DNA from: a virus
Lineage: Duplodnaviria > Heunggongvirae > Uroviricota > Caudoviricetes
IMG/VR virus record: IMGVR_UViG_2778261458_000002
DNA: 47,331 bases
Direction: 5' to 3' (one strand)
Part shown: one piece after another, positions 11,683 to 27,730 of the stretch
Layout: the number at the start of each line of letters is the position of its first letter
Numbering within the stretch: position 1 is the first letter of the stretch
Notes under the pieces: model-generated
Database searches by the model: none
What the model was told of the DNA's origin: nothing
Seen by the model: the letters and a program-made list of their open reading frames with translations, nothing else
Made by a program: the position numbers and the translations under genes

Positions 11683-11801
11683 CTCATAGAATTATATAAT
11701 TATAGATTTATATAAAAAGTGCTTTACAGGTGGGAAAAAATTTCCTAAGGTTATGCCCGAAACCGAGCGATACCCGCCCTGGTTAAACCGGAGATAACCC
11801 G
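11683..11801 (+). promoter_or_regulatory. conserved promoter + 5' leader module, copy A
   Basis: AT-rich palindromic box, TTTACA-N16-TAAGGT, then conserved leader CCCGAAACCGAGCGATACCCGCCCTGGTTAAACCGGAGA ending at ATG 11802; near-identical copies at 21925 and 27617. Confidence 0.5.
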
Positions 11802-12182
11802 ATGAGCATGATTAAAATCCGTAAAAACGCTTTCCTTAAAATTCAAACTATCCTGGCTGGTTCTGTTGGCGTGATTTGCCGTTCTTCTTCAAGCCGCATT
11901 GATGACGGCTACGATGATGAGTATCGTGTGTCCTCGTGCGATGAGGCTTTAACCTGGCTGAAGGAGAATCAGGAACGTGCCCAGGTATATCTGGAAACAG
12001 AGAACGGCAACCAGATGCTGCGTATTAGCGGTCGTTATGGATTTGAAACTACATTCATTGCCTATTTTAATCAGGCTTACTTTGACAAGGAGCTGGCCTG
12101 GTACACTGATCGCATGAGCAAAAGCGAGCCAGCCCCGATTACACCGCCGAACAATAAACCATTTTTATTCCTCGTTAAGTAA
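11802..12182 (+). CDS. hypothetical protein
   Basis: 126-aa ORF beginning exactly at the end of conserved module A. Confidence 0.5.
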   Translation: MSMIKIRKNAFLKIQTILAGSVGVICRSSSSRIDDGYDDEYRVSSCDEALTWLKENQERAQVYLETENGNQMLRISGRYGFETTFIAYFNQAYFDKELAWYTDRMSKSEPAPITPPNNKPFLFLVK

Positions 12183-12192
12183 ACACGATGTG

Positions 12193-12219
12193 CGCAAAGT
12201 GTCATTTTGACACTTTGCG
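12193..12219. promoter_or_regulatory. operator palindrome
   Basis: Perfect 12-bp arms CGCAAAGTGTCA-TTT-TGACACTTTGCG immediately upstream of the HTH gene. Confidence 0.45.
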
Positions 12220-12247
12220 AGTGTTAATATTGTGCGCGGAGGATGCT

Positions 12248-12499
12248 ATGACTGGTTATGAATTGAAATTATGGCGTCGAGGGATGAACTGGACGCAGGA
12301 GCGAGCCGCCGAAGAATTTGGGATATCGTTGGCTACATATAAGCGATATGAGAAGGGGGAGCCGCCGAGGGTCATGGAGATGGCCATTCGCGTTCTGTCG
12401 TTTGACGATATGGTTAAAGATCTTTCACACCTTGATAAAGATGCGATTCTGTTAAGGCTGCAAACCCTTGTATGGGAAAAGGTTAAAGTGTCGTCATAA
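12248..12499 (+). CDS. XRE-family HTH transcriptional regulator
   Basis: 84 aa from ATG 12248 (GGAGG 6 nt upstream); WTQERAAEEFGISLATYKRYE helix-turn-helix; the longer ORF from 12188 would read through its own operator. Confidence 0.55.
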   Translation: MTGYELKLWRRGMNWTQERAAEEFGISLATYKRYEKGEPPRVMEMAIRVLSFDDMVKDLSHLDKDAILLRLQTLVWEKVKVSS

Positions 12500-12571
12500 T
12501 TGGAACAAGGGATCAAATGATCCTTTACGGATCGTTTTATGGTGGTGTAATGTAAGCGCCAGAAAGACAAA

Positions 12572-12594
12572 AACCGCCTTGCCGGGCGGTTTTC
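12572..12594. terminator. bidirectional terminator-like hairpin
   Basis: AACCGCC / GGCGGTT stem flanked by A-run upstream and T-run downstream. Confidence 0.45.
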
Positions 12595-13155
12595 AGTCTG
12601 AAATTTAAATCTTGCTTGGTAGGCTGGATTTAAAAAGACACCTCTTGATTGGGGCGGCTTTCTTGCGTCTAAAGATAATCAAATCTTTTTGCGCCTGCAA
12701 CCCCTTTTTTACTGGTGCCCATTTCAGACTCACGCTCGCGTCGTTGTCTTTGCCACTTCGTTGGGTTCGGTGTTTTTGGGCGAAGTGGCGCGCGGGTATG
12801 CGTACAAGGGGAAAGTGTGCTGACGCAAGCCAGGAACAGCGATCTAAACTAAGTCGAGTCTGAGAAAGGCAGGAGTGCGACAACTCGCCTGTGCTCTATG
12901 AGCAGAAGAAGGTATATCAGACGACCAATGGCATGATTGTGGGCCACAGGGCGCACACGGCGGCGAAGCATTGGAAACGATGTGGAGCTATCTGGTGGCA
13001 TGAGTTCCGGTACTCGATCTCGAGCTTTTTTTGATGCTTTTGAGAAGGGGCCGGAACTCCGGTAAAGGGCACCCTGTATGGGGGGAGGGGGGGTTGTGTC
13101 TAAAGGAAGATCTAATACGATATTGCTTTACCCTTATATCTAAAAGGAGATTTCT

Positions 13156-13791
13156 ATGGGGATGCTGGTGGCGTTTATTATTAGCCTGATTTTGTGTTTC
13201 TTCGTAGTTCGTGGCGCATATCGGAAACAATGTGCCTCGTCTTCTGGTAGTAGGTTCAAAGCTGTTTTAGTGAGTGGCTTTCTCGGGATTGCTACTTTTG
13301 TAGTTGTTAATACTCTTGCGGCTGTGACCTTGATCCCAGAAGACTCCAGCACTACGGCTACCACCGGAGCTGCTTTTGATGGTGTGACCGTAGATAAGTT
13401 TAAGCAGTTATATAATGATGACCTTGAAGGCATCGCTACATCAGGAAAAGCCACCTCCACTATAAGAATTAAGTCTGTTAAACAAGGTAACAACACCGTT
13501 GAATTTGCCATCAACTCATCTGTTAACGGTCGGGCTAGAGTTGATAAGGATGGAAAGATTTCTGAGTTATTATGGCGAGTATCCAAGCCTAACTCTGATT
13601 CCTTGCTTTCTATGGCCGTAGCAGTTGAAGTCTTGGATGCGTCAAGTGAAAGAGACACCGTGATTGCGCAGTTAGAGCAGATTGTTAAATCTGATATGCA
13701 GAAAGCTGAGTTCAAGACTAAGAGAGGCGAGTATTACGTTTCTCGTGACAAATCAGGGCATGTATCGCTACTGATTACACCGAAATATTAA
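13156..13791 (+). CDS. membrane-anchored or secreted protein, unknown function
   Basis: 211-aa ORF with N-terminal hydrophobic helix (LVAFIISLILCFFVV), AAGGAG RBS, own terminator; isolated between non-coding stretches. Confidence 0.5.
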   Translation: MGMLVAFIISLILCFFVVRGAYRKQCASSSGSRFKAVLVSGFLGIATFVVVNTLAAVTLIPEDSSTTATTGAAFDGVTVDKFKQLYNDDLEGIATSGKATSTIRIKSVKQGNNTVEFAINSSVNGRARVDKDGKISELLWRVSKPNSDSLLSMAVAVEVLDASSERDTVIAQLEQIVKSDMQKAEFKTKRGEYYVSRDKSGHVSLLITPKY

Positions 13792-13802
13792 GAATTGAAG
13801 AA

Positions 13803-13826
13803 GCGCCCAAATCGGGCGCTTTGTTT
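13803..13826. terminator. intrinsic terminator shared by convergent genes
   Basis: GCGCCC-AAATC-GGGCGC hairpin followed by TTTGTTTT. Confidence 0.6.
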
Positions 13827-14995
13827 TATGGTTTTGCACCTGCGGCCAGTTTATCCGCAGATATTTTTATCAGTTCCTGTAGTGTCCTGGCTGGCAGGTT
13901 TGCATCCAGTACGCTGAGTATGCTGTTGTGATCAGCTTGGTCGACTACTTTGCCTGTCGGTGGTAGTAGTTTGAGCTGAGGGTTCAGATTTTCGTCAAAG
14001 CTGATAAGTGCTCTGGCGTTTCTGAGCAGATCAAGAAGTAAGGCTGATATCACATTTTCCTGAGTCATTGCTGGCAGATTTAGCGCCGCTTTGGTTTTCC
14101 CTGTTGCCTTGTCAAACTCCTTTATTAGTTCCTTCCTGTAGTTCGGTTCCGTTAATAGCCGATTATGCTCTGTTGCCGCGCGGATAATCGTTTTTTCCTG
14201 GTACAGTCGTTTAGCCAGATCACGCTCGTACTGTGTTTTTAACACGCTGCTGATAGCGTTAAAGGCTTCAATGTAGGCCAGCTTGATATCTTTCACGCCT
14301 GGACCGTCGATACTCTCCATGAGCAAGGTAAATCCGTCTTTTGTCATGCGATAGATTGTTATTTCGCGGTCGCTTCCTTCCAGCGGTCGTTGTTCTTTAA
14401 AGAAGTGACGCGCCGCAGCCGTGCGAGGAATGCGTAACGCATCGATGGCCATAACGATGGAATTGTTTGTGGTGCTGAATGCCTGAGCAACATCGGCTGA
14501 GGTTGTGAGTGGCTCGTTGTTGCACACCTTAATGTAAAATATCGGTTTGGCGTTGAGCGTATCGACAACCTCACGAGCATTGCTTGGCGAGACGGTAACG
14601 GTCGCGGCCGTTTGTGCGTTCTGGTTGAAATAGCAGTCTTCCAGCCGTTCGAACACATCCCACGCTTGGTTAGTTTCAAGCATTTTGGCGTGACGTGCAG
14701 CCCCGCGTTCTGTCCAGAGGATGAGGGAGCGAACTTTCGGGGGAATTTGTAACCCTCTTAAAGATGGTTCGTTAACTACTCTCACAGGAACTCTTAAAGA
14801 GTTTTTGTTCTTCAACTCTCGTAACTCTTTACCTTCTATCCTAAAAAAGTGTTTACCTTCTATAAAACGTTCCTTGTTTCTATTGAAATTGTTTGTCAGA
14901 CGTTGGCGCTCGGTTCCATACAATTGCGCCAGTAGTTCAGTAGTGATAACGGGGATCTGGTTATGCAGGATAGGCTGTAGGGTGTTAACGGTCAT
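13826..14995 (-). CDS. phage antirepressor-like protein (ORF6N/KilAC-type domains)
   Basis: 389-aa ORF; N-terminal ITTELLAQLYGTERQRLTNNFNRNKERF resembles antirepressor N-domains; translationally coupled to a small upstream ORF. Confidence 0.55.
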   Translation of the reverse strand: MTVNTLQPILHNQIPVITTELLAQLYGTERQRLTNNFNRNKERFIEGKHFFRIEGKELRELKNKNSLRVPVRVVNEPSLRGLQIPPKVRSLILWTERGAARHAKMLETNQAWDVFERLEDCYFNQNAQTAATVTVSPSNAREVVDTLNAKPIFYIKVCNNEPLTTSADVAQAFSTTNNSIVMAIDALRIPRTAAARHFFKEQRPLEGSDREITIYRMTKDGFTLLMESIDGPGVKDIKLAYIEAFNAISSVLKTQYERDLAKRLYQEKTIIRAATEHNRLLTEPNYRKELIKEFDKATGKTKAALNLPAMTQENVISALLLDLLRNARALISFDENLNPQLKLLPPTGKVVDQADHNSILSVLDANLPARTLQELIKISADKLAAGAKP

Positions 14996-15183
14996 TTTGC
15001 ACCTCCCATCACTACTTTGGTTACGAGGGAGATTTTTGCGTCAGAAACAGTGTTATCGTTGCTGGCGATGCGCATAGCTTCGCGCTCGATGATTTCAGCC
15101 AGGCGGAATTTATCGGCGTATGAGGCTTTCTTGAGAAGGATCTTTACGAGGTTGACGTAATAGTCATGGGGTAAGTTTGTCAT
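14992..15183 (-). CDS. small protein in the position of P1 icd, upstream of ant
   Basis: 63-aa ORF whose stop overlaps the ant start (ATGA); assignment by position only. Confidence 0.35.
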   Translation of the reverse strand: MTNLPHDYYVNLVKILLKKASYADKFRLAEIIEREAMRIASNDNTVSDAKISLVTKVVMGGAK

Positions 15184-15189
15184 GGTGAT

Positions 15190-15540
15190 AGTTCCCTTAA
15201 AGGTTAAGGATACTCACCACCGTCTGGTTCCAATCATTGGGTGGTGAGACGTACAGGGTTGGAACTACCGGTCACCATGGAATCCGGCGAGTCTTACGAC
15301 TCCCCCGCACGCCCCACCATAATTTGGGTGTAGCAGTGCTTTACGCATAAAAAACCGCTAACGCGGTATGCGCCATGATGATTATCGGGGTTCCAATCCC
15401 GACCGTAGATTTTGCTACGGCTCGGAAAGTGTCCACCAATGGCGCATTCATGTCAATACGGCGAGATTTTAACAGAGACAACCACATAGCGTGGGTTTGA
15501 AAAACGGAATTTTCTGTTCATTAAGCGCATGATTTGACCA
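15190..15540 (-). ncRNA. structured leader / candidate c4-like antisense RNA of the ant operon
   Basis: 350-nt untranslated region with repeated GGTTCCAAYC segments (15227, 15386) and a complementary TTGGAAC segment (15259), plus a CTCACCACC...GGTGGTGAG stem; boundaries unknown. Confidence 0.3.
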
Positions 15541-15576
15541 ATCAAATTTGTTTGATACTGGATTGTTGAGAACATT

Positions 15577-15687
15577 GTGTGAATGTAGGGAACTTATATG
15601 TGAGTATAAGGAACTTTGTGTGATTTATTTGCGAAAAAGTTTGCTTCATATCCAGTTTTTTGGGTATGCTGTGAATGTAGGGAACTA
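15577..15687. promoter_or_regulatory. three 17-bp direct repeats (operator candidates) in divergent intergenic region
   Basis: GTGAATGTAGGGAACT at 15581-15596 and 15671-15686, variant GTGAGTATAAGGAACT at 15600-15615. Confidence 0.4.
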
Positions 15688-15756
15688 GATGGTATTGATT
15701 GTGGTTTCTTTTGAGATTGGAAATTGGTAGTGAATTTAATGCAGAGGAGGTAAAAA

Positions 15757-16296
15757 ATGACTGAAACATCAAAAAATTCATGTTTTTCAACAATTCACCT
15801 AATGATCATAAAAGAACTTAGGCTGGAAAGAGGTGTGCATCAAGGAGTACTGGCTCAAGCTGCCGGAAAAACACCAAACGCATGGACAAAGATAGAGAAC
15901 GGGCAGTCTGTATTAACAGTTGATGCCCTTTTTGGTGCTTGCACAGCCCTTAATATTAGCCCAATGAATTTCATGTTGTTGGTAGAAAAACTGATTCCCG
16001 AATTTAATCGCCATGGTTACTACTTTTTCCCTGGAACAATCAGTCAGGACGAGGATAACCTTTTACCTCTGATGCTGCGTTACTTTAATAGCAAGGGGTT
16101 TGAAGCATTGAGAAATAGGCCATTCGAAAGAATTAGCATAAGCTCAATGGGATTTTCATTTGGGGGCGGCATCCCTGTTACTCCAACTGCTGTAATGTAT
16201 TGTTGCGATGAAGCATACAGAGATTGGGTCGATAACGGTGCTGATACGGATAATCGAGATTATCAGAAGCCATTAACAGGTCTTGGACTGTTTTAA
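15757..16296 (+). CDS. HTH (XRE-like) regulator, candidate repressor of the ant region
   Basis: 179-aa ORF, GAGGAGG RBS; N-terminal LAQAAGKTPNAWTKIENGQSVLTVDALF helix-turn-helix; divergent from ant operon. Confidence 0.5.
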   Translation: MTETSKNSCFSTIHLMIIKELRLERGVHQGVLAQAAGKTPNAWTKIENGQSVLTVDALFGACTALNISPMNFMLLVEKLIPEFNRHGYYFFPGTISQDEDNLLPLMLRYFNSKGFEALRNRPFERISISSMGFSFGGGIPVTPTAVMYCCDEAYRDWVDNGADTDNRDYQKPLTGLGLF

Positions 16297-16733
16297 TGAG
16301 TGAAGAAACAAAAAAACCGCCCTATTGAGGACGGTTCTTTCGTGCTGATCGGATTCGCGGTCCTTTCAGCATTACGTTGTTGTATAAACAACCACGCAAG
16401 CACAAGCAGCAAGTTGATTTTACCCAAAAGGTAATAATAGTCCACTATTATGCTTCAAAAAATTGTGGTTCTTGTTGTGTCTGCAAACTCACAGATTGTG
16501 GGTAGGTTACTGATTTTGTGAAAATAAACTGGTTTTTTCGTTTAATTTATTTCCTATTACTAATCTTAAAATAATCGTAAAATACCTGTGGACCTTCCCG
16601 CCGATTCGCACCCGGGCACCGACTTTAGGGGAGGATTCTCCGTTGCCGTACATGCAAGCACAAGCAGCCGTGCTTGCTCTCGCGTTGTTTTCGTCGGTGG
16701 GGATGCCGTGAAACGGCCTGTAAGGGCCATACA

Positions 16734-16856
16734 ATGAAAAAATACTGTATGTGTATTTTTATCGTTGTTACTGGGGCTTTGTTTACGCCACATGGGGAGG
16801 GTTGGAAGATTACTGATAACGCTCTGAATGTGACGATAAACATTAGCAGCAAGTAG
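16734..16856 (+). CDS. small hydrophobic peptide (40 aa), speculative
   Basis: MKKYCMCIFIVVTGALFTPHG... preceded by a long hairpin-rich leader and followed by a strong terminator; no Hok signature. Confidence 0.25.
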   Translation: MKKYCMCIFIVVTGALFTPHGEGWKITDNALNVTINISSK

Positions 16857-16862
16857 CGATTA

Positions 16863-16884
16863 GGCCCCTTCGGGGGCCTTTTTT
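16863..16884 (+). terminator. intrinsic terminator
   Basis: GGCCCC-TTCG-GGGGCC hairpin followed by TTTTTT. Confidence 0.7.
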
Positions 16885-16894
16885 ATGGTTGAAT

Positions 16895-17077
16895 TTAAAC
16901 GCTGGAGCGCATTAAGCCTTTCAGAACTGCTTCACGTACCCATTCTGGCTTGGTGGATAGCAGGGCAAATAAGCGACCAGCTTGCAGCCGTTTGAGGTCG
17001 GTTAGACGAGTTTTCAGTAACCGTGTATATTGTTGCTCGGACATAACAAATTCCCCTTGTTGTGTCGCGACGGCCAA
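16895..17077 (-). CDS. small hypothetical protein downstream of par genes
   Basis: 60-aa ORF co-oriented with parA/parG; weak support. Confidence 0.25.
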   Translation of the reverse strand: MAVATQQGEFVMSEQQYTRLLKTRLTDLKRLQAGRLFALLSTKPEWVREAVLKGLMRSSV

Positions 17078-17106
17078 CAGTTGGCGCTGGAGGCCGTCAC
17101 CTTCTC

Positions 17107-17355
17107 TTACTTCTGGTTGTATTGAGCCTTGAGTAACTCAAAAGATTTTGTCAGCACTTCTTTCAATGACATATCCATTGAGCTGGCGAACGTTTTGTAC
17201 TCGCGTTTAAATTCAGGGTCGACGTTAAACGCCATTTGTGCCCCACCTGATTTGGTTCTGGTTGGCGTTTCAGTCGGGTCGAAAACCTGCGGTTGTTCGA
17301 TCGATGGCGGTACGCCTTTGCTGTTCTTCTTTGGTGGTTTTGATGGTCCGGCCAT
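17107..17355 (-). CDS. ParG-like ribbon-helix-helix partition/centromere-binding protein
   Basis: 82-aa ORF directly downstream of ParA gene; basic Pro-rich N-tail and C-terminal RHH-like segment (MAFNVDPEFKREYKTFA). Confidence 0.55.
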   Translation of the reverse strand: MAGPSKPPKKNSKGVPPSIEQPQVFDPTETPTRTKSGGAQMAFNVDPEFKREYKTFASSMDMSLKEVLTKSFELLKAQYNQK

Positions 17356-17398
17356 GTGTATCCCCTCTTATATAAATCTATAAAACTATAATTATATA

Positions 17399-18067
17399 TT
17401 ACGCGGCAGTAGTCAGAGCCTCAAGCTGGTTGATAATCCCCTGAATAACGTCGTCTGCCTTTTTGCGTGGCGCAACGTATGAGCACTCAATGAGGCTTAA
17501 GCCCTTATCCTGAGCTTTGCTCAGAGCTGGCTTGTGGGGAATGTACTTATCGACAACAAAGTATGGCGTATTAGCCAGGTACTCTTGGGCTTCGATGTAG
17601 TCAGCTTCGTTTTCAGCCGCGCCGGAAAACACCATGCAAATTTTCTTGATTGGTACACCCTTTTTAACGATGCCGTGAGCCGTGTTAACGGTGGTTTCCA
17701 GGTCATCGGTAGAGAATCTGGTTGGCAAAATAACCATATCCAGAAATTCAGAGAGCTTCGGTACTGATTCAGATGCGTAGGCACCGCCATCGACGATAAC
17801 CAGGTCGTATACTTCTGATTCGATGATTTTCTGGACTTGTGATGGTGTGCCGCACGGCTGCGCCGCGATTGCTGGTTCGATATTGTTGGCCATTCTGCGT
17901 TGTACCCAACGCGTTACCGTTCCGTTAAGCACATCCATATCGATCAGGCATACATTCCAGCCAGCCTTTGCATAAGCAACTGCTAAAGCACGGGCAATTG
18001 TTGATTTGGTTACGCCGCCTTTTCCGTTGAAAATACCTACAGAGATAGTCATTTGTCGAGACTCCAT
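17399..18067 (-). CDS. parA: ParA-family partition ATPase (small type Ib, ParF-like)
   Basis: 222-aa ORF with deviant Walker A GKGGVTKST near N-terminus and Walker B-like LVIVDGG. Confidence 0.8.
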   Translation of the reverse strand: MESRQMTISVGIFNGKGGVTKSTIARALAVAYAKAGWNVCLIDMDVLNGTVTRWVQRRMANNIEPAIAAQPCGTPSQVQKIIESEVYDLVIVDGGAYASESVPKLSEFLDMVILPTRFSTDDLETTVNTAHGIVKKGVPIKKICMVFSGAAENEADYIEAQEYLANTPYFVVDKYIPHKPALSKAQDKGLSLIECSYVAPRKKADDVIQGIINQLEALTTAA

Positions 18068-18075
18068 GTGTTTGG

Positions 18076-18170
18076 TTATATAATTCTATAAATCTATATT
18101 TATAGAACGAGGTAAGCATAACCAACTTTTTGGCGGATGAAAAGCGTTTTATATAATTATATAAATCTAT
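18076..18170. repeat. two 23-bp direct repeats upstream of parA (centromere/operator candidate)
   Basis: TTATATAATTCTATAAATCTATA (18076-18098) and TTATATAATTATATAAATCTATA (18148-18170); a related box lies between parA and parG (17368-17400). Confidence 0.45.
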
Positions 18171-18202
18171 AATCATATAAGCGGGCGTTAGCCCGCTTGC
18201 AG

Positions 18203-18577
18203 TCAGAGGTCAGCTATCGTTGATATCAGTTGATTTGCTAGCTGTCGCTGTTTACGTGAGAGGGTTAGAGCAGCTTCTGAGCGGTCGCTAAGAGGGGTGT
18301 TTTCATCAAGAATCATGAGGCATACAGAAATAATAGCCCTGTTATATGCCATCAATGGCTGGCACAGCTTCGATACCGCTGGCACATCGTATTGTAAGGC
18401 CGTTTTGAGGCAGACTTTTTGTTCTGATGCCAGATGAAGGATAGATTCTATCCAGTCGATATCTTTCTCATTATCAATGATTTGGCATAACATACACTCA
18501 ATCGCTATGTTCAACGCTTGGATTTCGATTCCAGCAGTGATCAGAGTTTCGTTTTTATTGGCTGTATGTAATTCCAT
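18203..18577 (-). CDS. hypothetical protein
   Basis: 124-aa ORF downstream of repressor gene; operator-like CCACAAAGTGTGG 37 bp upstream of its start. Confidence 0.4.
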   Translation of the reverse strand: MELHTANKNETLITAGIEIQALNIAIECMLCQIIDNEKDIDWIESILHLASEQKVCLKTALQYDVPAVSKLCQPLMAYNRAIISVCLMILDENTPLSDRSEAALTLSRKQRQLANQLISTIADL

Positions 18578-18613
18578 GCGTAGCCTCTTTTATACTTTCA
18601 CATGTTGTCAAAA

Positions 18614-18626
18614 CCACAAAGTGTGG
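18614..18626. promoter_or_regulatory. operator-like palindrome CCACAAAGTGTGG
   Basis: Same CCAC-N5-GTGG architecture as the boxes at 19447-19501. Confidence 0.35.
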
Positions 18627-19326: not shown

Positions 19327-19364
19327 GTCTCATCAATCGTGAATGGTGGGTTATTTATACATTA

Positions 19365-19501
19365 CCACATTTAGTGGTTTTCACATGGTAAGACGAGAGG
19401 TGGACCACAAATAGAAGGTTATTTTTTGTTTCGCCCATTGAAAAGCTCACGATATGTGGTTTTAATACCACATATCGTGGTTTTAATACCACATATCGTG
19501 G
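19365..19501. promoter_or_regulatory. operator array between divergent repressor and early genes
   Basis: CCACATATCGTGG at 19468-19480 and 19489-19501, inverted variant at 19447-19459 (21-bp spacing), variant CCACATTTAGTGG at 19365-19377. Confidence 0.55.
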
Positions 19502-19521
19502 TTTTAATTGGAGTTCGTTAA

Positions 19522-20758: not shown

Positions 20759-21162
20759 TGAACGGACGTACACCAACGAAGAAAGAGAAACTTTATATAC
20801 AAGCGGTGCTCACTCATGTGGGTTGCATAGCTTGCATTATTGATGGCCGTGAAATTGAGAATCCAGAGCTGTGGACGGAGCTACATCACGATCCTGATTA
20901 CGGCAGCGTTGATGAGAATTGCCACTTCCATAGCTTTGGGTTGTGCGCACCACATCATCGCGGTGTTGTGCCTGGTGGTGGGCGCGTGCCTCCGCATATT
21001 GCCGTTCGTCACCCTCCCCTGAGTAATTGTGCTCGCTTTGTTGAGCGTTATGGCACCGATGAATTTTTGTGTGCGCAGACGTGGGAGCTGTTGCCGCAGT
21101 CAGTTAAAGACGAAATTGGGTTTGATCTTAGTCTTGGTGAAGTACCAGGGGATACCAAATGA
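20758..21162 (+). CDS. Cys/His-rich protein, possibly HNH/Ref-like nuclease
   Basis: 134-aa ORF with GCIACIIDGR ... ELHHDPDYG ... CHFHSFGLCAPHH metal-binding pattern. Confidence 0.3.
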   Translation: MNGRTPTKKEKLYIQAVLTHVGCIACIIDGREIENPELWTELHHDPDYGSVDENCHFHSFGLCAPHHRGVVPGGGRVPPHIAVRHPPLSNCARFVERYGTDEFLCAQTWELLPQSVKDEIGFDLSLGEVPGDTK

Positions 21163-21491
21163 GATATACCGGCTTTCGCAAACCAGCGACAAGGAAAAGC
21201 AAATACGGCAATAAAAAAACGGTTGTCGATGATATCGCTTTTGATAGCAAAAAAGAGGCTGATTACTACTGCGAACTGAAGCTACTGAGAAAAGCTGGCC
21301 GCGTTGTGACGTTTCTTATGCAGGTGCCTTTTCATCTGCCTGGTGGTGTCGTTTATAAACTTGATTTCATGGTGTTTTATGACGATGGGACGATTGATTG
21401 TGTCGACACTAAAGGTGTGCGAACAGACGTCTACATCATGAAGAAAAAGCAGGTAGAGGCACTTTATCCCGTCACGATACGGGAGATCTGA
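21159..21491 (+). CDS. phage protein, DUF1064-like
   Basis: 110-aa ORF with SKYGNKKTVVDDIAFDSKKEADYYCELKLLRKAG, a pattern I associate with DUF1064 phage proteins. Confidence 0.45.
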   Translation: MRYTGFRKPATRKSKYGNKKTVVDDIAFDSKKEADYYCELKLLRKAGRVVTFLMQVPFHLPGGVVYKLDFMVFYDDGTIDCVDTKGVRTDVYIMKKKQVEALYPVTIREI

Positions 21492-21494
21492 ACA

Positions 21495-21872
21495 GTGAGA
21501 CGCGATCTGGATAGCTTGTTTGAGCTATGGGCGCTGTGGGTGCGCAATGGCTGCAACGCCCGTAGCGGTTTCGCGTCGATGTTAGAAATGATGATGGTTA
21601 CGCGCTGCCAGTTTACCGGAGGGGGCGGCGCACCAAATGACTCACTGGAAACCAGTATAGAGGGAGCGGTGACGGCCCTCACGGTAGTTGATGAGACTGC
21701 GGCGCTGGTTATCCGAATTGAATACGGGGCGTGGGAGATTCGGGGCCTCGACATAAATGCACCGCATATTGATAAAGCCCACGCCCTTTCTCTTAGTCTC
21801 AGACAGTATCGCCGGAAGCTGGCAAAAGCCAGGGCGTATGTTGTCGACTATTTGAAAAAGCGAAGAGAGTAA
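21495..21872 (+). CDS. candidate late-gene antiterminator (Q-like)
   Basis: 125-aa ORF (GTG start) ending ~50 bp before conserved promoter module B and upstream of the lysis cassette; weak resemblance to small Q proteins. Confidence 0.3.
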   Translation: MRRDLDSLFELWALWVRNGCNARSGFASMLEMMMVTRCQFTGGGGAPNDSLETSIEGAVTALTVVDETAALVIRIEYGAWEIRGLDINAPHIDKAHALSLSLRQYRRKLAKARAYVVDYLKKRRE

Positions 21873-21924
21873 AAGTGTCATTTTGAGCTGTTTTGATGGT
21901 GTGTAGACATCGGGAATATCGAAA

Positions 21925-22041
21925 ATCTATAAATATATAATTATAGATTTATATAAAAAGTGCTTTACAGGTGGGAAAAAATTTCCTAAGGTTATACCCG
22001 AAACCGAGCGATACCCGCCCTGGTTAAACCGGAGAAATCTG
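21925..22041 (+). promoter_or_regulatory. conserved promoter + 5' leader module, copy B
   Basis: Near-identical to 11683-11801 and 27617-27730; ends at ATG 22042. Confidence 0.5.
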
Positions 22042-23109
22042 ATGAATAAACAAGTAATTATTTCTGACTGGATCAACAACCCTAACAGCCTGTTAAGCAC
22101 TGATACTGGCTACCTATTACGCCATGTTAATGGTCGTATGGTCAAAAGCGATGAGCACGAAACCTTTTTCTTTGTTGAAGACGATGGGCGCATCTATGAG
22201 GATGGTTACTCTTATGAAGCCCAAACTGGTTGTATCCCTGCGGAGCTGGTGGACGTAACAGAAGATCTGCGCAAAGCATGGCTTGAACAGCAGCAGCGCG
22301 GAGATGATTACGTAAACACCTATCAGGAACGCCAGAACGCGCGTCTTGCCCGATATATTGCTCGTGCAGAAAAAGCCAGAAAAGAAGGTGCGGTAGCGCA
22401 TAAGCGAGCGCATGACCTGTTGGATGTGATCCCGTTAGGCCAGCCGATTTTAGTTGACCATTATAGCGCGAAAGGCCATCGCCGCCGTTTGTCTAAAGCT
22501 GATGCGTTATTCAGAAAAGCGTTTGTTGAATGCGAAAGTAAAGCATCACACTACGAGAGCAAAGCCGCAGGTGTTGGTCGTAATGGAATTTCGTCTGATG
22601 ATCCTGATGCGCTATTTAAGTTGCTTCGTAAGCTGCAAGGCTGCATGAAGTCACACGTCAAAATGAAGGCCGCAAATAAGGCCATTCGCAAATACAAAAA
22701 AGACCAATTACAGCAGCTTTCTGCATTAATCGATCTCAGGTTTACAGAAAGCGAAGCCAAAGAGTTACTGGCCGGAGATTTTTGTGGGCGCATCGGATTC
22801 CCTTCATACGCACTGAGCAACAATAACGCCGAGATCAAACGACTACAGAGCCGTATTAAGGAGCTTGAATCGGTCAAGTCTGTAACAGGAGCACAGCGCG
22901 AAGAATACGACGACTTTTCTATGGAGATAGATCCAGAGGATAACCGCATCCTGTTTTATTTCCCTGGCAAACCAGAGGCAAACATTCGTTCGCTGCTTAA
23001 ATCACGCGCCTTTAAGTGGAGTCCAACCCGTAATGCATGGGTTCGCAAGATTACTCCAAACGCCCTGGCTGATGCCCGATATCTAAAAGAATCGCTATTG
23101 AAAGCCTGA
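22042..23109 (+). CDS. hypothetical protein (DUF3560-like)
   Basis: 355-aa ORF starting at end of module B; HYSAKGHRRRLSKADALF and FKWSPTRNAWVRK segments. Confidence 0.45.
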   Translation: MNKQVIISDWINNPNSLLSTDTGYLLRHVNGRMVKSDEHETFFFVEDDGRIYEDGYSYEAQTGCIPAELVDVTEDLRKAWLEQQQRGDDYVNTYQERQNARLARYIARAEKARKEGAVAHKRAHDLLDVIPLGQPILVDHYSAKGHRRRLSKADALFRKAFVECESKASHYESKAAGVGRNGISSDDPDALFKLLRKLQGCMKSHVKMKAANKAIRKYKKDQLQQLSALIDLRFTESEAKELLAGDFCGRIGFPSYALSNNNAEIKRLQSRIKELESVKSVTGAQREEYDDFSMEIDPEDNRILFYFPGKPEANIRSLLKSRAFKWSPTRNAWVRKITPNALADARYLKESLLKA

Positions 23110-23120
23110 CAGTAAGCCTA

Positions 23121-23140
23121 CGGCGGGACGTCTCCCGCCG
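23121..23140 (+). terminator. terminator-like hairpin
   Basis: CGGCGGGA-CGTC-TCCCGCCG hairpin after the 355-aa gene; followed by AT-rich box rather than a clean T-run. Confidence 0.35.
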
Positions 23141-23186
23141 TATATAGAATTATATATTTATATAAATGTATAAGGACGCCTCGACA

Positions 23187-23468
23187 ATGAAACGCAAAAT
23201 TATTAACCCCCAAGATGTGATTAATTTCCTGACCGATCACCCATGTTCAAAAGTGGACGTAATCGCGGAGCACATTGGTGTGTCGCAGAACTCTATGCGT
23301 TGCAGACTGAGAAGCATGGTTGCCGAAGGACAGATAACAACCAGGAAAATAAATGGTTGCCTGTACTACTCCGCTAAACCGGAATTGCCATTTGGCATGA
23401 ATCCTAACTCCATGTTGTTTAACACCTTATTAGCCAAAGTTAAGCCGTTGAGAGAGGCTGTGGCATGA
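23187..23468 (+). CDS. winged-helix DNA-binding protein (FaeA-like)
   Basis: 93 aa from ATG 23187 (AAGGA RBS); VDVIAEHIGVSQNSMRCRLRSMVAEGQI helix-turn-helix. Confidence 0.45.
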   Translation: MKRKIINPQDVINFLTDHPCSKVDVIAEHIGVSQNSMRCRLRSMVAEGQITTRKINGCLYYSAKPELPFGMNPNSMLFNTLLAKVKPLREAVA

Positions 23469-23830
23469 GCATCAAAACACATACCGGAATAATCATTACC
23501 AATGATGGTGAGAAAAAAGTGAAGTTGCGCGAGACGCCGACAACCTGGTGTGTTGGTCCGAAAGAAACATATCGCAAGGAAGATGGCCGTCGTTGTGGGG
23601 CACCACTTTCCCGCCGTCGCCTCCTTTTGAGCACGATAAAACCTATCGGGCAGGTTGAGCAACCAACGACTCCGGTAACGAAGATTTCAGACAAGAGTCT
23701 GGCAAACCTGATCGCCGATGCGGACAAGGTGCTGGAGCGGAACACCCCAGTAGCCGATGAGGAATGGTGGCAGGATTTCCGAGCCGCAATGCTAGAGCTT
23801 CAGGAACGTCGTCGGGAGGAGTTGAAGTGA
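23465..23830 (+). CDS. hypothetical protein
   Basis: 121-aa ORF, ATGA-coupled. Confidence 0.4.
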   Translation: MSIKTHTGIIITNDGEKKVKLRETPTTWCVGPKETYRKEDGRRCGAPLSRRRLLLSTIKPIGQVEQPTTPVTKISDKSLANLIADADKVLERNTPVADEEWWQDFRAAMLELQERRREELK

Positions 23831-24018
23831 GCAAGAAAAATGCCGGATGGGTCAGGCCAATGAAGGCGAATAAACATCATTATTTTAATGAAGGTGAAGT
23901 AACCAGCATTTGCGGCCGTTGGATGTATTTTGGTGATTACCGTGAGCCAGACACTTTTGAGAGTCCTGATGATTGCGTGTCTTGTCGCCGGAAATTGAAC
24001 AAGGTGGCTTCTAAATGA
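23827..24018 (+). CDS. small Cys-rich protein (zinc-ribbon-like)
   Basis: ICGRW...DDCVSCRR pattern; start uncertain (GTG 23827 or ATG 23860). Confidence 0.3.
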   Translation: MSKKNAGWVRPMKANKHHYFNEGEVTSICGRWMYFGDYREPDTFESPDDCVSCRRKLNKVASK

Positions 24019-24404
24019 AAGAACGTGGTGTTGTTTTTAATGACGATATGGTTAGGTCCATCCTCGAAGGAAGGAAGACGCAGACTCGCCGACCTGTAAA
24101 AAATGTCAGGGCCGATAACTGCCTGGTTATCCGTAAACCGACAAAGAAACGCAATGGTGTCTATACCCACGTTATGGATGCACCTGAACATGGTTTATGC
24201 CCGTTCGGTAACGTTGGTGATCGCATATGGGTCCGTGAGGCGTGGGCGATATTAGGCAATGAGGATGGTTGCAGTGTGGACTGGAACGACAACCTTTGTC
24301 GTGGCGATGAGAAGAACGCAGCAAGGATTTATCGGGCCAGTTGTGAGCAAAAGCCTGGTGATTACGGTTTGTGGTCGATATCCCAGCCAGTGGTTGAGAG
24401 TTAG
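24015..24404 (+). CDS. ASCH-like domain protein
   Basis: 129-aa ORF; N-terminal FNDDMVRSILEGRKTQTRRP resembles ASCH/PUA-like proteins. Confidence 0.4.
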   Translation: MKERGVVFNDDMVRSILEGRKTQTRRPVKNVRADNCLVIRKPTKKRNGVYTHVMDAPEHGLCPFGNVGDRIWVREAWAILGNEDGCSVDWNDNLCRGDEKNAARIYRASCEQKPGDYGLWSISQPVVES

Positions 24405-24848
24405 CAATCGCCGTGTGGTGTTGTTCTCATTTTCTGGAATTGCCAGAGAGGGAGTAAAAGAGAAGCGCAGCGCGGCGCAAAACCGCTGGAAAAACCACTT
24501 ATATAAGCTGTAGTGAGAAACCATGCGCTTACGAGCAGTATTCAGATATTCAGAGCGGGTAATGAAGCACATACAACCGAAAACATGGCAGAAACTGGAC
24601 TCTATGGGAGTTAAGTTGGAGAAGATTACTCAACTTAAGCAGTGGCATATCGGCGAATATTATGGAAGTCCTGGTCGGGATGTTCGGTTGGTAAAAAGTT
24701 GAATATTGCTTTTTTATTGATCGATTAACCACAATATGAAGTTTTTTTTATGGGAAAACCTTGTTTTAGGTGGTAACTGGGTGTAGTGTTTCATTTAACG
24801 TAGTAAAACTGCGTTAAGCGATTACCGCGTAATTTGTTGCTTTATGAA

Positions 24849-24879
24849 GCCCTGCCTTTTTCGGCGGGGCTTTTTTTTT
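24849..24879 (+). terminator. intrinsic terminator upstream of lysis cassette
   Basis: GCCCTGCC / GGCGGGGC stem (one G-U pair) followed by nine T. Confidence 0.65.
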
Positions 24880-24892
24880 AACGAGGATTTCA

Positions 24893-25288
24893 ATGTCAGC
24901 AGAACCAATTTCCGGTACGGCCGTTGCTGCTGGTGGCCTGATGGGTGCCAGCGTTTTTGGTATTGCAACTGGTATTGATTACGGCGTTGTATTCGGGGCA
25001 TTTGCTGGCGCTGTTTTCTATGTTGCTACAGCGGTGAATATTAGCCGTCTCAAGCTGATTGGCTATTTCTTTACATCGTTCATTGTTGGAGTGATTGGAG
25101 CGCCGTTAGTTGGCTCATTTCTTGCCAAATGGACCAGCTACAACGATCGTCCTCTTGATGCACTTGGTGCGGTTATTGTGGCTGCATTGACAATTAAAAT
25201 CCTCACGTTCGTAAACAGCCAGGATCTCGGTAGCATCTTTGGAATGCTTTCCCGCTTACGTGGAGGGGGGGCAAATGGTAAGCAGTGA
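24893..25288 (+). CDS. membrane protein, putative holin
   Basis: 131-aa ORF with several hydrophobic helices, first gene of lysis cluster. Confidence 0.45.
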   Translation: MSAEPISGTAVAAGGLMGASVFGIATGIDYGVVFGAFAGAVFYVATAVNISRLKLIGYFFTSFIVGVIGAPLVGSFLAKWTSYNDRPLDALGAVIVAALTIKILTFVNSQDLGSIFGMLSRLRGGGANGKQ

Positions 25289-25571
25289 CCCGTCAGCACT
25301 GATTAATGCGGTGCTTTGCACAGTAATAGTAATGGCGCTGATGCTTTATCGACGGAAAGACTCCAGGCATCGTCCATTTGTTTCCTTTCTGGCTTATATC
25401 TACGTCATTGTATACGCCAATGTTCCCTTCCGTTATGTGTTCGGTCTTTATCAAGAATCCCACTGGTTGGTGGTTATTGGAAATCTGATTATCTGCATCG
25501 TTGTTCTGTATTTCAGGGGCAATCTGGCGAGGATAGTTGACTCATTAGGGTTTAATCATGACCAAAGATGA
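25275..25571 (+). CDS. small membrane protein (holin/antiholin candidate)
   Basis: 98 aa from ATG 25275 (G-rich RBS); three predicted TM helices. Confidence 0.4.
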   Translation: MVSSDPSALINAVLCTVIVMALMLYRRKDSRHRPFVSFLAYIYVIVYANVPFRYVFGLYQESHWLVVIGNLIICIVVLYFRGNLARIVDSLGFNHDQR

Positions 25572-26100
25572 GATTTTTAACAGCGTTCTTGGAAAAGAGG
25601 GTGGCTATGTGGAGCACCCTGACGACAAGGGAGGCCCAACAAAGTGGGGCATTACTCAGAACACTGCCCGTGCTCATGGATACCGTGGCGATATGCGCGA
25701 TTTAACCCGCGAACAGGCACTGGAAATCCTTGAGGCTGATTACTGGTACGGACCACGCTTTGATCAGGTGGCCGCATTATCCTCTGATATTGCCGCAGAG
25801 CTGTGTGACACGGGGGTGAACATGGGGCCAACAGTGGCGTCAAAAATGCTTCAACGCTGGCTGAATGTGTTCAACCTGCGCGGGAAGCTGTATCCCGATT
25901 TGGATGCAGACGGACGAATCGGTCCACGTACCATTAATGCGCTACGTGCTTATCTTGGGAATCGGGGAAAAGATGGCGAACGGGTGATGCTGACGTCGCT
26001 GAACTGTACGCAGGGCGAACGCTATCTGGAGCTGGCGGAGAAGCGCGAGGCTAATGAGTCGTTTGTCTACGGCTGGATGAAAGAGCGAGTGGTGGTATGA
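25558..26100 (+). CDS. endolysin, GH108-like lysozyme with peptidoglycan-binding domain
   Basis: 180-aa ORF; N-terminal VLGKEGGYVEHPDDKGGPTKWGIT (EGGY motif) and C-terminal PG-binding-like region. Confidence 0.7.
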   Translation: MTKDEIFNSVLGKEGGYVEHPDDKGGPTKWGITQNTARAHGYRGDMRDLTREQALEILEADYWYGPRFDQVAALSSDIAAELCDTGVNMGPTVASKMLQRWLNVFNLRGKLYPDLDADGRIGPRTINALRAYLGNRGKDGERVMLTSLNCTQGERYLELAEKREANESFVYGWMKERVVV

Positions 26101-26375
26101 CTGGTTTGAAAGCCGTTTTGTCATTTATCGGCACCGTTATATTGGTTGCATTCGGTGCGTTTGGTTTTGGTCGAATGAAGGGGCGAGAAAAGGCCGAAGA
26201 TGAAGCTGAAAAGCAGCGCATTAATGAGAATGCAGCCGCCGTAAAAGCCACTGCGGAGCGGCGTATAGAAGTGACAAAAGAGGTGGGGAATGTACAGCAG
26301 AGTGTTAACCATATGGCTGATGACGATGTTGATCGCGAGCTGCGGGAGTCGTGGAAGCGTCCCGGTGGTGGTTGA
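26097..26375 (+). CDS. i-spanin (Rz-like)
   Basis: 92-aa ORF, N-terminal TM helix then charged coiled-coil; overlaps endolysin stop. Confidence 0.55.
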   Translation: MTGLKAVLSFIGTVILVAFGAFGFGRMKGREKAEDEAEKQRINENAAAVKATAERRIEVTKEVGNVQQSVNHMADDDVDRELRESWKRPGGG

Positions 26376-26499
26376 TACCGCCTGTGATTGGGTAAAGCCC
26401 ATCTACCTGACTGATCACGATATCGATGTTATGGACCGCCAGACAAAGAAAGATATTCTGGCTCATAACAGGGCATGGGAAATCAACTGCCCAAAGTAA
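26290..26499 (+). CDS. o-spanin (Rz1-like lipoprotein) overlapping Rz in another frame
   Basis: 69-aa ORF with lipobox-like LIASC starting inside the Rz gene. Confidence 0.45.
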   Translation: MYSRVLTIWLMTMLIASCGSRGSVPVVVDTACDWVKPIYLTDHDIDVMDRQTKKDILAHNRAWEINCPK

Positions 26500-26668
26500 T
26501 ATATATTTCTATAATTATATAAATATATAGTTACAACATTCTATGCGCTTTTCTCATGAGCGCACGCATCAACCATGTTTGTCTGATATGCCGCCGCGCC
26601 CAAAAATCCTGAATTTATTGGCTGGGATTTTCGTGCGCGGCGCCACACCAGACAAACAAATCAAATAT

Positions 26669-26744
26669 GGCCCCTTAGCTCAGTGGTTAGAGCAGGCGAC
26701 TCATAATCGCACGGTCATCGGTTCAAATCCGGTAGGGGCCACCA
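26669..26744 (+). tRNA. tRNA with CAU anticodon, ileX-like (tRNA-Ile2 lysidine type) or tRNA-Met
   Basis: 76 nt, GGCCCCTTAGCTCAGTGGTTAGAGCAGGCGACTCATAATCGC... with acceptor stem GGCCCCT/AGGGGCC and 3' CCA; 5' half matches my recollection of E. coli ileX. Confidence 0.85.
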
Positions 26745-27030
26745 ATTCACTCTCACACATAAAGATAAGCGCGGTGGAGTTACTTCTTCGTGCTCATCTT
26801 TATGCGTGCCTGGTGCGCATTTCGGAGGCAGGGCCTGTTATCCGCAAAGGGGTAAAAGCTGGAGCGGCACGGAACTGTAGCCGTGTGACCAAAACAGCGT
26901 TGTCGGGCGATATCCGGCACACAACAGGCAAGGGCATTAATCAGTCTGGTTAGTGCCCTTTTCGTTGTGTTTGCTGTAGAGCTGGCCAGCGTTATGACTG
27001 CCGGAGATAAGCGCCGGAGGCACAACTAAC

Positions 27031-27618
27031 ATGGAGGCAATTGCATTGTTTAATCTGATTTATGCAGATCCCCCCTGGGAATACAAAGACAAGTGTAAGG
27101 ATGGGAATCGTGGCGCTGGTTTTAAGTATCCAACGATGAAAGCTGAGGAGATTGCTCGTATTCCTGTCTGGCAGCTTGCTAATCCTGAATCGTGTTTGTT
27201 GGCCATGTGGTGGGTTCCGACTCAGCCAGAAGAAGCGTTGCTGGTGGTGAAAGCATGGGGATTCAGGCTTATGACCATGAAGGGCTTCACATGGAACAAA
27301 TGTGGTAGCCGACAGCCAGATAAGCTGGTGATGGGGATGGGGCATATGACTCGTGCGAACAGTGAAGATTGCTTGTTTGCGGTAAAAGGCAAACTGCCGA
27401 CCCGCCTTGATGCGGGAATCATTCAGTCGTTTACATCGCCTCGTCTGGAACATTCACGGAAGCCTGATGTGGTTCGTGACAAGCTGGTAAGACTGTTAGG
27501 TGATGTTCCTCGTATTGAGCTGTTTGCTCGCGGTGATTTACCTGATGGCTGGCATGGCTGGGGCAACCAGTGCAATGGAGGTATCCAATTGCATGATGCT
27601 CTCTGGCAAGTGGTATAG
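27031..27618 (+). CDS. DNA N6-adenine methyltransferase, MT-A70 family (orphan)
   Basis: 195-aa ORF with IYADPPWEY catalytic motif; no restriction endonuclease gene adjacent. Confidence 0.75.
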   Translation: MEAIALFNLIYADPPWEYKDKCKDGNRGAGFKYPTMKAEEIARIPVWQLANPESCLLAMWWVPTQPEEALLVVKAWGFRLMTMKGFTWNKCGSRQPDKLVMGMGHMTRANSEDCLFAVKGKLPTRLDAGIIQSFTSPRLEHSRKPDVVRDKLVRLLGDVPRIELFARGDLPDGWHGWGNQCNGGIQLHDALWQVV

Positions 27619-27730
27619 AATTATATAATTATAGATTTATATAAAAAGTACTTTACAGGTGAGAAAAAATTTCCTAAGGTTGTACCCGAAACCGAGCGAT
27701 ACCCGCCCTGGTTAAACCGGAGATAACCCG
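27617..27730 (+). promoter_or_regulatory. conserved promoter + 5' leader module, copy C
   Basis: Near-identical to copies A and B; ends at ATG 27731. Confidence 0.5.

Follow-up and report, generated by a model that had tools for sequence, protein, structure and literature searches.

Repeated promoter-leader modules of a myovirus phage-plasmid combine iterons, a palindrome shared with a candidate regulator gene and a covarying 5' hairpin

Module copies and their cassettes in the phage-plasmid

Three near-identical copies of a promoter-plus-leader module, about 115 bases long and spread across 16 kb, stand in front of unrelated genes in the viral record IMGVR_UViG_2778261458_000002 (Caudoviricetes), whose 47,331 nucleotides are here called the window. 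The window represents almost the entire genome of a ~48-kb myovirus phage-plasmid. It encodes an IncFII-type RepA, a Walker-type ParA with a small partner encoded downstream and a CI-like repressor with helix-turn-helix (HTH) and S24 domains, and it contains no recognisable integrase. Near-identical relatives are found as the Yersinia phages vB_YpM_39, vB_YpM_41 and vB_YpM_44 and as about 60 E. coli plasmids of 46-52 kb, and the element has further relatives in Salmonella, Klebsiella and Serratia.

The copies, here named A, B and C, lie where the initial annotation had placed them, and their alignment shows near-identity from the AT-rich box to the start codon. Within the 120-nt repeat family that they form (D4), copy B is 90% and copy C 97% identical to copy A, while BLAST gives 96.6% over 116 nt for A against C and 99.0% over 102 nt for A against B. 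A 39-nt leader segment, CCCGAAACCGAGCGATACCCGCCCTGGTTAAACCGGAGA, is the same in all three and has no further occurrence in the window with up to 8 mismatches allowed. The view of the module as a promoter-plus-leader unit ahead of unrelated genes is borne out. Each copy abuts the ATG of a different open reading frame (ORF; Table 1). Every copy begins with an array of four tandem AT-rich 8-bp units (ATAGAATT ATATAATT ATAGATTT ATATAAAA), which we call iterons, and continues with a sigma-70-type promoter (TTTACA-GGTGGGAAAAAATTTCC-TAAGGT), a bulged RNA hairpin and a Shine-Dalgarno (SD) sequence. This anatomy amends the initial annotation in two respects: the promoter spacer has 17 nt instead of 16, and the AT-rich box, described as palindromic, is a tandem array, the true palindrome (GGGAAAAAATTTCCTA) being located inside the spacer. 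Judging from the position of the -10 element, transcription from copy A is predicted to start near 11758. In the region of the SD sequence and start codon of copy A (11790-11804), the block AAACCGGAGATAACCCGATG is identical in E. coli, Serratia and the IMG/VR record 640753048.

Among 5426 complete E. coli genomes, 72 (about 1.3%) carry the module, with a median of 3 places per genome; one of the carriers is the reference strain ATCC 25922 (plasmid NZ_CP009073). Plasmids hold 212 of its 215 places in E. coli, and each of the three Yersinia phages has 3. This distribution rules out a host intergenic repeat of the REP or ERIC type, the possibility by which the initial annotation had proposed to refute itself, and confines the module to this phage-plasmid family. 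When one genome of each bacterial species was scanned with the pattern, no match fell in the Enterobacterales, and the matches elsewhere were about as many as we estimate to arise by chance.

More diverged lineages are represented by the Salmonella plasmid NZ_LN890526 (L001), the Serratia plasmid CP083756 (L002) and six IMG/VR contigs (L043-L048), in which ParA is merely 52-56% identical to that of the window. All of them display the same module architecture in 2-4 copies each, at 55-88% nucleotide identity. Copies within one genome (93-96% identical in E. coli, 100% in Salmonella) resemble each other more closely than copies at matching positions do between genomes (85-88% for E. coli against Salmonella), which indicates concerted evolution; the identity among the three copies therefore says little about constraint. 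What outlasts the divergence of the lineages is a set of four parts: the iterons, the promoter, the palindrome and the hairpin.

The genes behind the modules form short operons, and the terminator or hairpins that follow all three make these units look like promoter-gene-terminator cassettes. Homologues of the 126-amino-acid (aa) protein encoded after copy A also sit behind a module in Salmonella and in L043, L044, L046 and L047. Among the five cargo proteins, Pfam recognised only the DUF3560 protein of 355 aa and the HTH domain of the 103-aa protein. PHROGs matched the cargo to families of unknown function and to regulator and primase families, PADLOC returned no match for the cargo and regulator proteins, and the source databases name all homologues of the 126-aa protein, and of the Q-like protein discussed below, 'hypothetical'. 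DUF3560 is a widespread plasmid gene (PMC6965323). Literature searches on vB_YpM_39, PA0613 and DUF3560 yielded nothing mechanistic.

Table 1. Positions of the modules, their parts and associated genes in the window
Feature	Position	Strand	Remarks
Copy A	11686-11801	+	runs into ATG 11802 of the 126-aa ORF
Copy A, iteron array	11686-11717	+	four 8-bp AT-rich units; ends 5 bp 5' of the -35; repeat family D3
Copy A, sigma-70-type promoter	11723-11751	+	TTTACA 11723-11728, 17-bp spacer, TAAGGT 11746-11751
Copy A, palindrome	11732-11747	+	16 bp; fills the spacer, overlaps the first two -10 bases
Copy A, bulged RNA hairpin	11761-11784	+	outer stem AACC(G)/(U)GGUU, inner stem GCG/CGC, loop AUACC
Copy A, SD sequence	11790-11793	+	GGAG
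Copy A, cargo	11802-12182, 12188-12499	+	126-aa ORF, 103-aa HTH ORF
Hairpin after copy A operon	12568-12595		terminator call of the scan restricted to the minus strand
Copy B	21927-22041	+	runs into ATG 22042 of the 355-aa ORF
Copy B, iterons	21927-21958	+	extra units from 21922
Copy B, -35	21964-21969	+
Copy B, palindrome	21973-21988	+
Copy B, -10	21987-21992	+
Copy B, hairpin	22002-22025	+
Copy B, SD sequence	22031-22034	+	ATG 22042
Copy B, cargo	22042-23109	+	DUF3560 protein (355 aa); Pfam DUF3560, E-value 3.7e-31
GC-rich hairpin after DUF3560 gene	23120-23141		no clean T-run; no call by the terminator scan
Copy C	27615-27730	+	runs into ATG 27731 of the 89-aa ORF
Copy C, iterons	27615-27646	+
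Copy C, -35	27652-27657	+
Copy C, palindrome	27661-27676	+
Copy C, -10	27675-27680	+
Copy C, hairpin	27690-27713	+
Copy C, SD sequence	27719-27722	+	ATG 27731
Copy C, cargo	27731-28197	+	89-aa and 66-aa ORFs; closed by strong terminator 28219-28242
Promoter of the HTH gene	10118-10146	+	TTGCCA, 17 bp, TACCAT; palindrome AGGAAAAGATTTCCTA 10127-10142 in the spacer; no iterons or hairpin
HTH protein gene, candidate palindrome-binding regulator	10161-10460	+	99 aa
Operon partner of the HTH gene	10457-10747	+	96 aa
ParG-like gene, candidate iteron-binding protein	17107-17355	-	82 aa
Stand-alone iteron array	17368-17399	-	between the parA stop and the ParG-like start
parA-like ATPase gene	17399-18067	-	222 aa; probable start 18052
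Two stand-alone iteron arrays	18076-18107, 18149-18180	-	bracket the putative par promoter TTTTCA-17-TATGCT
Stand-alone iteron array	23142-23173	+	ahead of a MarR-like gene; leader AAGGACGCCTCGACAATG follows
Stand-alone iteron array	26499-26538	+	3' of the lysis genes, 130 nt upstream of tRNA-Met
Q21-like protein gene	21495-21872	+	125 aa; directly upstream of copy B
PR'/tR'-like unit before the holin gene	24761-24893		promoter TTGTTT-17-TAGTGT 24761-24789; block TTCATTTAACGTAGTAAAACTGCGTT; strong terminator 24846-24873; holin ATG 24893

Conserved parts of the module

The -35 element, the 17-bp spacer and a -10 element of the form TAnnnT are retained in every lineage. In the relatives the -35 is TTGCAT-like and the -10 reads TATTAT, TAATAT or TATAAT, close to consensus, so the weak TAAGGT of the window is a local variant and no sign of activator dependence. 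The palindrome, 16-17 bp long, overlaps the -10. Its letters change among lineages, from AGGAAA-N4-TTTCCT in E. coli and Salmonella to AGGAC-N6-GTCCT in Serratia and L043-47 and AGGTC-N6-GACCT in L048, while its symmetry stays. A fourth promoter of the same design, which has neither iterons nor hairpin, precedes the conserved gene of a 99-aa HTH protein, and it carries the same lineage-specific palindrome in the same spacer position in the window, L001, L002, L048 and L045, that is, in every lineage with this promoter captured. In L043-47 two module copies flank the HTH gene, the upstream one in a position from which it would drive the gene. In a more distant contig, L064, the palindrome is found in the HTH gene's own promoter and again in a second promoter directly behind the gene, which has a 5' hairpin and no AT box.

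The 99-aa protein aligns over its entire HTH domain with residues 154-220 of AcrIF24, its DNA-binding body domain (E-value 1.5e-5), and with Aca3 (E-value 0.017). AcrIF24 acts as repressor of the operon that encodes it, by binding a 17-bp inverted repeat (TAG...CTA) located between the -35 and -10 of TTGCAT-N17-TATAGT (PMC9638941). The window shows the layout of this promoter, which is the closest characterised case. Pfam, NCBIfam and PDB sequence searches gave nothing useful for the 96-aa partner protein encoded in the same operon, nor for the ParG-like and Q-like proteins. The CI-like repressor, another regulator suggested in the initial annotation, does not qualify, its operators (ACCACA..GTGGT repeats, 19340-19505) being unrelated to the module. 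These repeats of the ACCACA-N-GTGGT type occupy the intergenic region between the CI gene and the early operon and include tandem CACGATATGTGGTTTTAATACCACATATCGTGG copies beside the start of the latter.

The iterons keep a fixed register and end 5-7 bp upstream of the -35 across lineages. Stand-alone boxes of the same kind occur at five further sites of the window, which gives eight arrays in total, modules included. The 8-bp-phased pattern has 29 overlapping matches, all of them in these eight array sites, and none in 100 shuffles. Three of the eight arrays surround parA and the ParG-like gene. The product of the former, which matches CbiA, ParA and MipZ (E-values 1.7e-12 to 5e-9), is a small Walker-type protein without the N-terminal DNA-binding domain. 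Lineages differ in the iteron unit, which reads TATAkAwT for E. coli and Salmonella, TTAAAkAw for Serratia and L048 and (G/T)ATATAww for L043-47, and the unit types group exactly like the predicted DNA-reading beta-strand of the ParG-like protein (MAFNV, MNFNV, LLLRL). In a structural model of this protein (mean predicted local distance difference test score, pLDDT, 65.5), residues 1-40 form a disordered basic tail, residues 41-46 are extended, and two helices follow at 47-59 and 62-79; the modelled layout is that of ribbon-helix-helix proteins and suggests such a fold. A profile search with the ParG-like alignment matched designer PPR proteins, a spurious result caused by the low-complexity tail.

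An independent view of the arrays is offered by NZ_CP037908 (L054), an unrelated 28.5-kb conjugative cfr plasmid with a ParA 45% identical to that of the window and a 77-aa ParG-like partner. It has AT arrays of the same kind at five places, located upstream of parA, between parA and the partner gene, and before two genes of type IV secretion. The plasmid has no homologue of the HTH protein or the Q-like protein, and the coexistence of arrays and par genes without them helps to assign the boxes to the ParG-like protein. We infer from these sequence comparisons that the iterons would be a binding array of the ParG-like protein. The ParG-like gene, proposed initially as one of the candidate regulators, turns out relevant by way of the AT box. 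In the same plasmid IS26 cuts off a module A of which the iterons, the -35 and part of the spacer are left; this remnant adjoins the same Gp49/HTH toxin-antitoxin pair as is found at 10992-11638 of the window. The features named for this plasmid lie at its coordinates 1440-1500, 2941-3665, 11983-12017 and 13750-13795.

Partition proteins of the ribbon-helix-helix type, such as omega of pSM19035 and ParG of TP228, recognise 7-8-bp repeats arrayed at the promoters of their own and of other genes and act as repressors. The arrangement in the window resembles these systems, and that of ParB in pB171 par2, in that the gene of a Walker-type ParA is followed by that of a small protein, in the contiguous short repeats (6-8 bp) that occur in either orientation upstream of, inside and beyond the par operon, and in the presence of an identical type of array before other promoters of the replicon. 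It differs from them in that the module arrays stop 5-7 bp before the -35 instead of covering it, in that the element is a phage-plasmid whose co-regulated promoters have a second operator, and in that the ribbon-helix-helix fold is here only suggested. A second conserved type of leader, GGAG/GGAC-N-CTCGACAA(A)TG, follows stand-alone AT boxes before parA and the MarR-like gene. It lies at 18052-18067 (-) and 23172-23189 (+) of the window, at 33005-33030 and 38090-38108 of L002 and at about 6600-6625 of L044, and is kept across lineages with ~50% protein identity.

All 30 distinct leaders of the module share one minimum-free-energy fold, ((((.(((.....)))..)))). Its first base lies 9-10 nt after the -10, at a distance of 2-4 nt from the predicted 5' end, and 17-22 nt separate its last base from the ATG. 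In an alignment of 23 leaders 90% of the cells pair, as compared with 14-40% when the partner columns are slid by 1-3, and in six core pairs not a single cell is broken. A switch between G-C and A-U is seen at pairs 17-40, 18-39 and 23-33, and the G-U pairs are workable only on this strand. A bulged G and two C-G pairs are invariant, and the sequence of the loop varies. The RNA-level element suspected in the leader at the outset is thus backed by a hairpin that covaries across lineages, for which we regard the evidence of the aligned leaders as good but not overwhelming. Rfam has no family for this leader, either in the whole window at the gathering score or in the module at E-values up to 10. 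Stem-loops within 2-4 nt of the 5' end, as in ompA, are a known design for stabilising mRNA. The hairpin shares its position relative to the predicted 5' end with these ompA-type structures, and differs from them in its invariant bulged G, its invariant CC/GG pairs and the specific operator alongside, features that suggest recognition over mere end protection.

Two observations on the leader stand apart from this hairpin. Mimicry of the palindrome by the hairpin, as described for Aca2, was judged by eye; it is seen in part in L048 and L043-47 and not in E. coli, and we do not claim it. In the SD region a weak mini-hairpin that would occlude the SD sequence is possible, as CGG-AGAUAAC-CCG in copies A (11790-11801) and C; an alternative form, CGGA-GAAA-UCUG, is found in copy B (22031-22041) and in the Salmonella modules, and the mini-hairpin is absent in L043-47.

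Possible regulation of the modules

What could be the role of this combination of parts? We favour, by a modest degree, the possibility that the module is a repressible promoter-leader head, in which the HTH protein acts via the palindrome, the ParG-like protein acts via the iterons and the 5' hairpin acts on the mRNA. Each copy would then head a small self-contained cassette, and three unrelated short operons would be joined in one regulon. The palindrome would serve as the operator of the element's Aca-type HTH protein, which would also repress its own promoter through it. The ParG-like partner of ParA, possibly a ribbon-helix-helix protein, would provide a second and probably negative input on the iterons, which mark the par operon and two other sites as well. 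In an established plasmid-prophage both proteins would be present and the promoters throttled, and upon entry into a naive cell the promoters might fire until the repressors build up. The HTH protein might find in the hairpin a second target, at the level of translation, as Aca2 and Aca1 have been shown to do; alternatively, the hairpin might be an mRNA-stabilising 5' stem-loop. The near-identity of the three copies would reflect concerted evolution together with the need to fit the same trans-acting factors.

The known systems closest to such a design are those of the Aca proteins. Aca2 and Aca1 bind an inverted repeat of the promoter as well as an RNA hairpin, which follows immediately on the transcription start and leaves about 20 nt to the start codon; its lower stem is conserved, its upper stem covaries, and 1-2 of its bases are unpaired. 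A single Aca protein often controls several operons, only one of which holds the regulator, and Aca14, a protein of the ribbon-helix-helix type, shows that this fold, too, can act as an Aca (bioRxiv 10.64898/2026.07.27.740549). The window has a sigma-70 promoter with an inverted repeat in or over the -35/-10 region, as do the Aca1, Aca2 and AcrIF24 regions, and the repeat recurs in the promoter of the candidate regulator (all three modules and 10118-10146). It encodes a small HTH protein of the AcrIF24/Aca3 sequence family, for which autorepression is known in the characterised systems and is here suggested from sequence. Its 5' untranslated region (5'-UTR) hairpin matches that of Aca1 and Aca2 in shape and, relative to a predicted start site, in position, and the DNA and RNA motifs stand before several operons, as in multi-operon Aca regulons. 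As far as sequence can tell, the module appears to fit the Aca1/Aca2 control design point by point, with an HTH protein of the Aca3/AcrIF24 type, and what it would add to this design is an iteron array tied to a partition protein. It departs from the Aca systems in several ways: it has no recognised anti-CRISPR or anti-defence cargo, its operons are scattered over 16 kb of a phage-plasmid and not adjacent, the regulator's leader in E. coli has no hairpin, the hairpin is no mimic of the palindrome, and there is the extra upstream array.

A number of observations weigh against the repressible-head account. The candidate regulators diverge jointly with the lineages, and co-variation alone cannot assign sites to them, so that the assignments lean on L054 and L064. 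The ParG-like protein has no sequence match in Pfam or PDB, a Foldseek search with its low-confidence model was uninformative, and hhalign against a ParG sequence gave an alignment that is in register and weak (E-value 0.0013, 18% probability). The iterons, at about -41 to -72, occupy the position of an activator site or UP element, hence the layout fits an effect of either sign. The stability of the hairpin is ordinary (z -1.0 to -2.4), and with such modest thermodynamic significance the case for it rests on covariation, which itself comes from few independent lineages. The hairpin and the DNA palindrome have dissimilar sequences, and the E. coli leader of the HTH gene itself forms no hairpin. 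No cargo protein matched a known anti-CRISPR or defence-related family in Pfam, PHROGs, PADLOC or the source names, a weak negative as these libraries are general ones.

A different role of the modules is suggested by the Q-like gene that adjoins copy B on its upstream side. They might be Q-utilisation promoters comparable to lambda PR', at which the Q21-like product of this gene loads onto RNA polymerase via the 8-bp repeats or the palindrome, with read-through of the cassette terminators into the late genes. Eight of the ten best PDB matches of the model of this protein (mean pLDDT 77) are Q21 complexes or crystal forms, with probabilities up to 0.98 and template modelling (TM) scores of 0.43-0.54, and there is a weak full-length match to the PA0613 family; as a label for the modelled fold, 'Q-like' seems reasonable, even with Foldseek E-values of 0.07-0.6 and no Pfam or PDB sequence match. 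Direct repeats of 8 bp make up the AT box, and the target of Q21 comprises two direct 8-bp subsites (10.1101/651190). The Q-like gene precedes a module in four lineages (E. coli, Salmonella, Serratia and L048), and terminators follow the cassettes ahead of the lysis and packaging genes. Promoter, short unit and terminator are arranged as in the lambdoid Q/PR'/qut switch. The details of the module agree poorly with this role, however. No conserved -10-like pause element (TAnnnT), as expected of a sigma-dependent pause, is found in the first 25 transcribed nt of the 23 aligned leaders. The AT box lies about 40-70 bp upstream of the start while the Q21 site lies within -40 to -1, and a hairpin at the very 5' end of the RNA is at odds with the Q21 nozzle, which extrudes single-stranded RNA (10.1101/651190). 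The palindrome is inverted and not direct, and is found in the HTH gene promoter as well; L044 and L047 have a bare AT box instead of a module after the Q-like gene; L054 has AT arrays and no Q-like gene; and the three copies precede protein-coding cassettes. Immediately ahead of the holin gene, the unit at 24761-24873 consists of a promoter, an initial transcribed block conserved at 85% identity in Salmonella (L001, 42290-42399) and a strong terminator; it is a better and more canonical candidate target for the Q21-like protein. The adjacency of copy B to the Q-like gene, pointed out initially, stands, the functional link implied by it is not supported, and we consider a Q-dependent role of the modules improbable. 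A related idea, that the leader hairpin is a nut- or put-like signal of processive antitermination, would suit a small conserved hairpin just past several temperate-phage promoters with terminators downstream. A boxA-like sequence (CGCTCTT(T)A) is missing from the leaders, an arginine-rich protein of the N type was not identified, the loop is variable, the single hairpin is not the two-stem put fold and Rfam offers no match, which leaves this idea with very little probability.

The simplest alternative regards the modules as constitutive 'moron' promoters copied together with their leaders by recombination, the AT box being an UP element, the palindrome incidental and the hairpin a block to RNase E-dependent decay. 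Short cargo cassettes followed by terminator-like hairpins conform to such a view, concerted evolution accounts for the identity within a genome, AT-rich DNA upstream of a -35 occupies the place of an UP element, and both the ompA-like position of the stem-loop and its modest folding z-scores are what a mere stabiliser would show. We nevertheless deem it unlikely, in view of an AT unit that is lineage-specific, absent from the shuffles and found again at the par genes and in another par-carrying plasmid, of a palindrome that varies by lineage, stays palindromic and recurs in the HTH gene promoter, and of an invariant bulged G and CC/GG pairs that exceed the needs of stability. The initial annotation itself had read the poor -10, which has 3/6 consensus matches, as a mark of activator dependence; under this explanation a phage protein on the AT box or the palindrome would recruit RNA polymerase. 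The AT box does stand at a class-I activator position in fixed register with the -35, and the par promoter has the same box-to-(-35) geometry. This suggestion is hard to reconcile with relatives that have a near-consensus -10 in an unchanged architecture, with a palindrome that covers the -10, where a repressor operator would be placed, and with the repressor role of omega and ParG. The HTH domain of AcrIF24, homologous to that of the window's protein, likewise represses a promoter of like layout (PMC9638941), and an activator-dependent module is in our judgement a distinctly unlikely explanation.

Other features of the window and implications

Several further features of the window lie outside the modules. 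A control set resembling that of the P1 immI antirepressor spans 13826-15421 (-) and comprises the C4 antisense RNA (15237-15324, 84 bits) and isrK (15348-15421, 65 bits), both located upstream of an ORF of 63 aa (14992-15183) and of a gene (13826-14995) whose product resembles ORF6N/Rha antirepressors. Between this antirepressor region and the par genes lies a full-length match to the ryfA RNA family (16588-16884, +, 142 bits), which ends at a terminator (16862-16879). The tRNA-Met gene at 26669-26744 is followed by a terminator (26930-26960), and the 136-aa ORF that overlaps it (26543-26953) is probably no gene. Repeats inside coding sequences include tandem units of 132 and 300 nt (4894-5755) in a 673-aa ORF taken as the tail-fibre gene (4318-6339), and 45-nt blocks at 120-nt spacing (family D5, 46339-46623) in a 930-aa ORF taken as the tape-measure gene (44282-47074).

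The module illustrates that near-identical repeats within one genome reveal little about constraint; the signal came here from diverged relatives. In the databases searched, no function is assigned to any of the proteins examined. Taken further, the account of the module as a repressible head leads to a joint reading that we regard as tentative and rather doubtful as a whole: the ParG-like protein would be a global co-regulator of Aca-type operons whose cargo fires only on entry into a new cell, as long as both the partition protein and the Aca-like repressor are still missing, the modules would double as extra centromere-like sites, the HTH protein would bind the hairpin, and the 126-aa, DUF3560 and 89/66-aa genes would be new anti-defence or establishment factors. 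If this were true, whatever sits behind a module would belong to the element's establishment or anti-defence genes, and the module would provide a handle for finding them. A regulator of the Aca3/AcrIF24 type with a covarying 5'-UTR hairpin would join the short list of suspected dual DNA- and RNA-binding HTH proteins, and a partition protein would be wired into the same promoters, tying the maintenance of the plasmid to gene expression at its entry.

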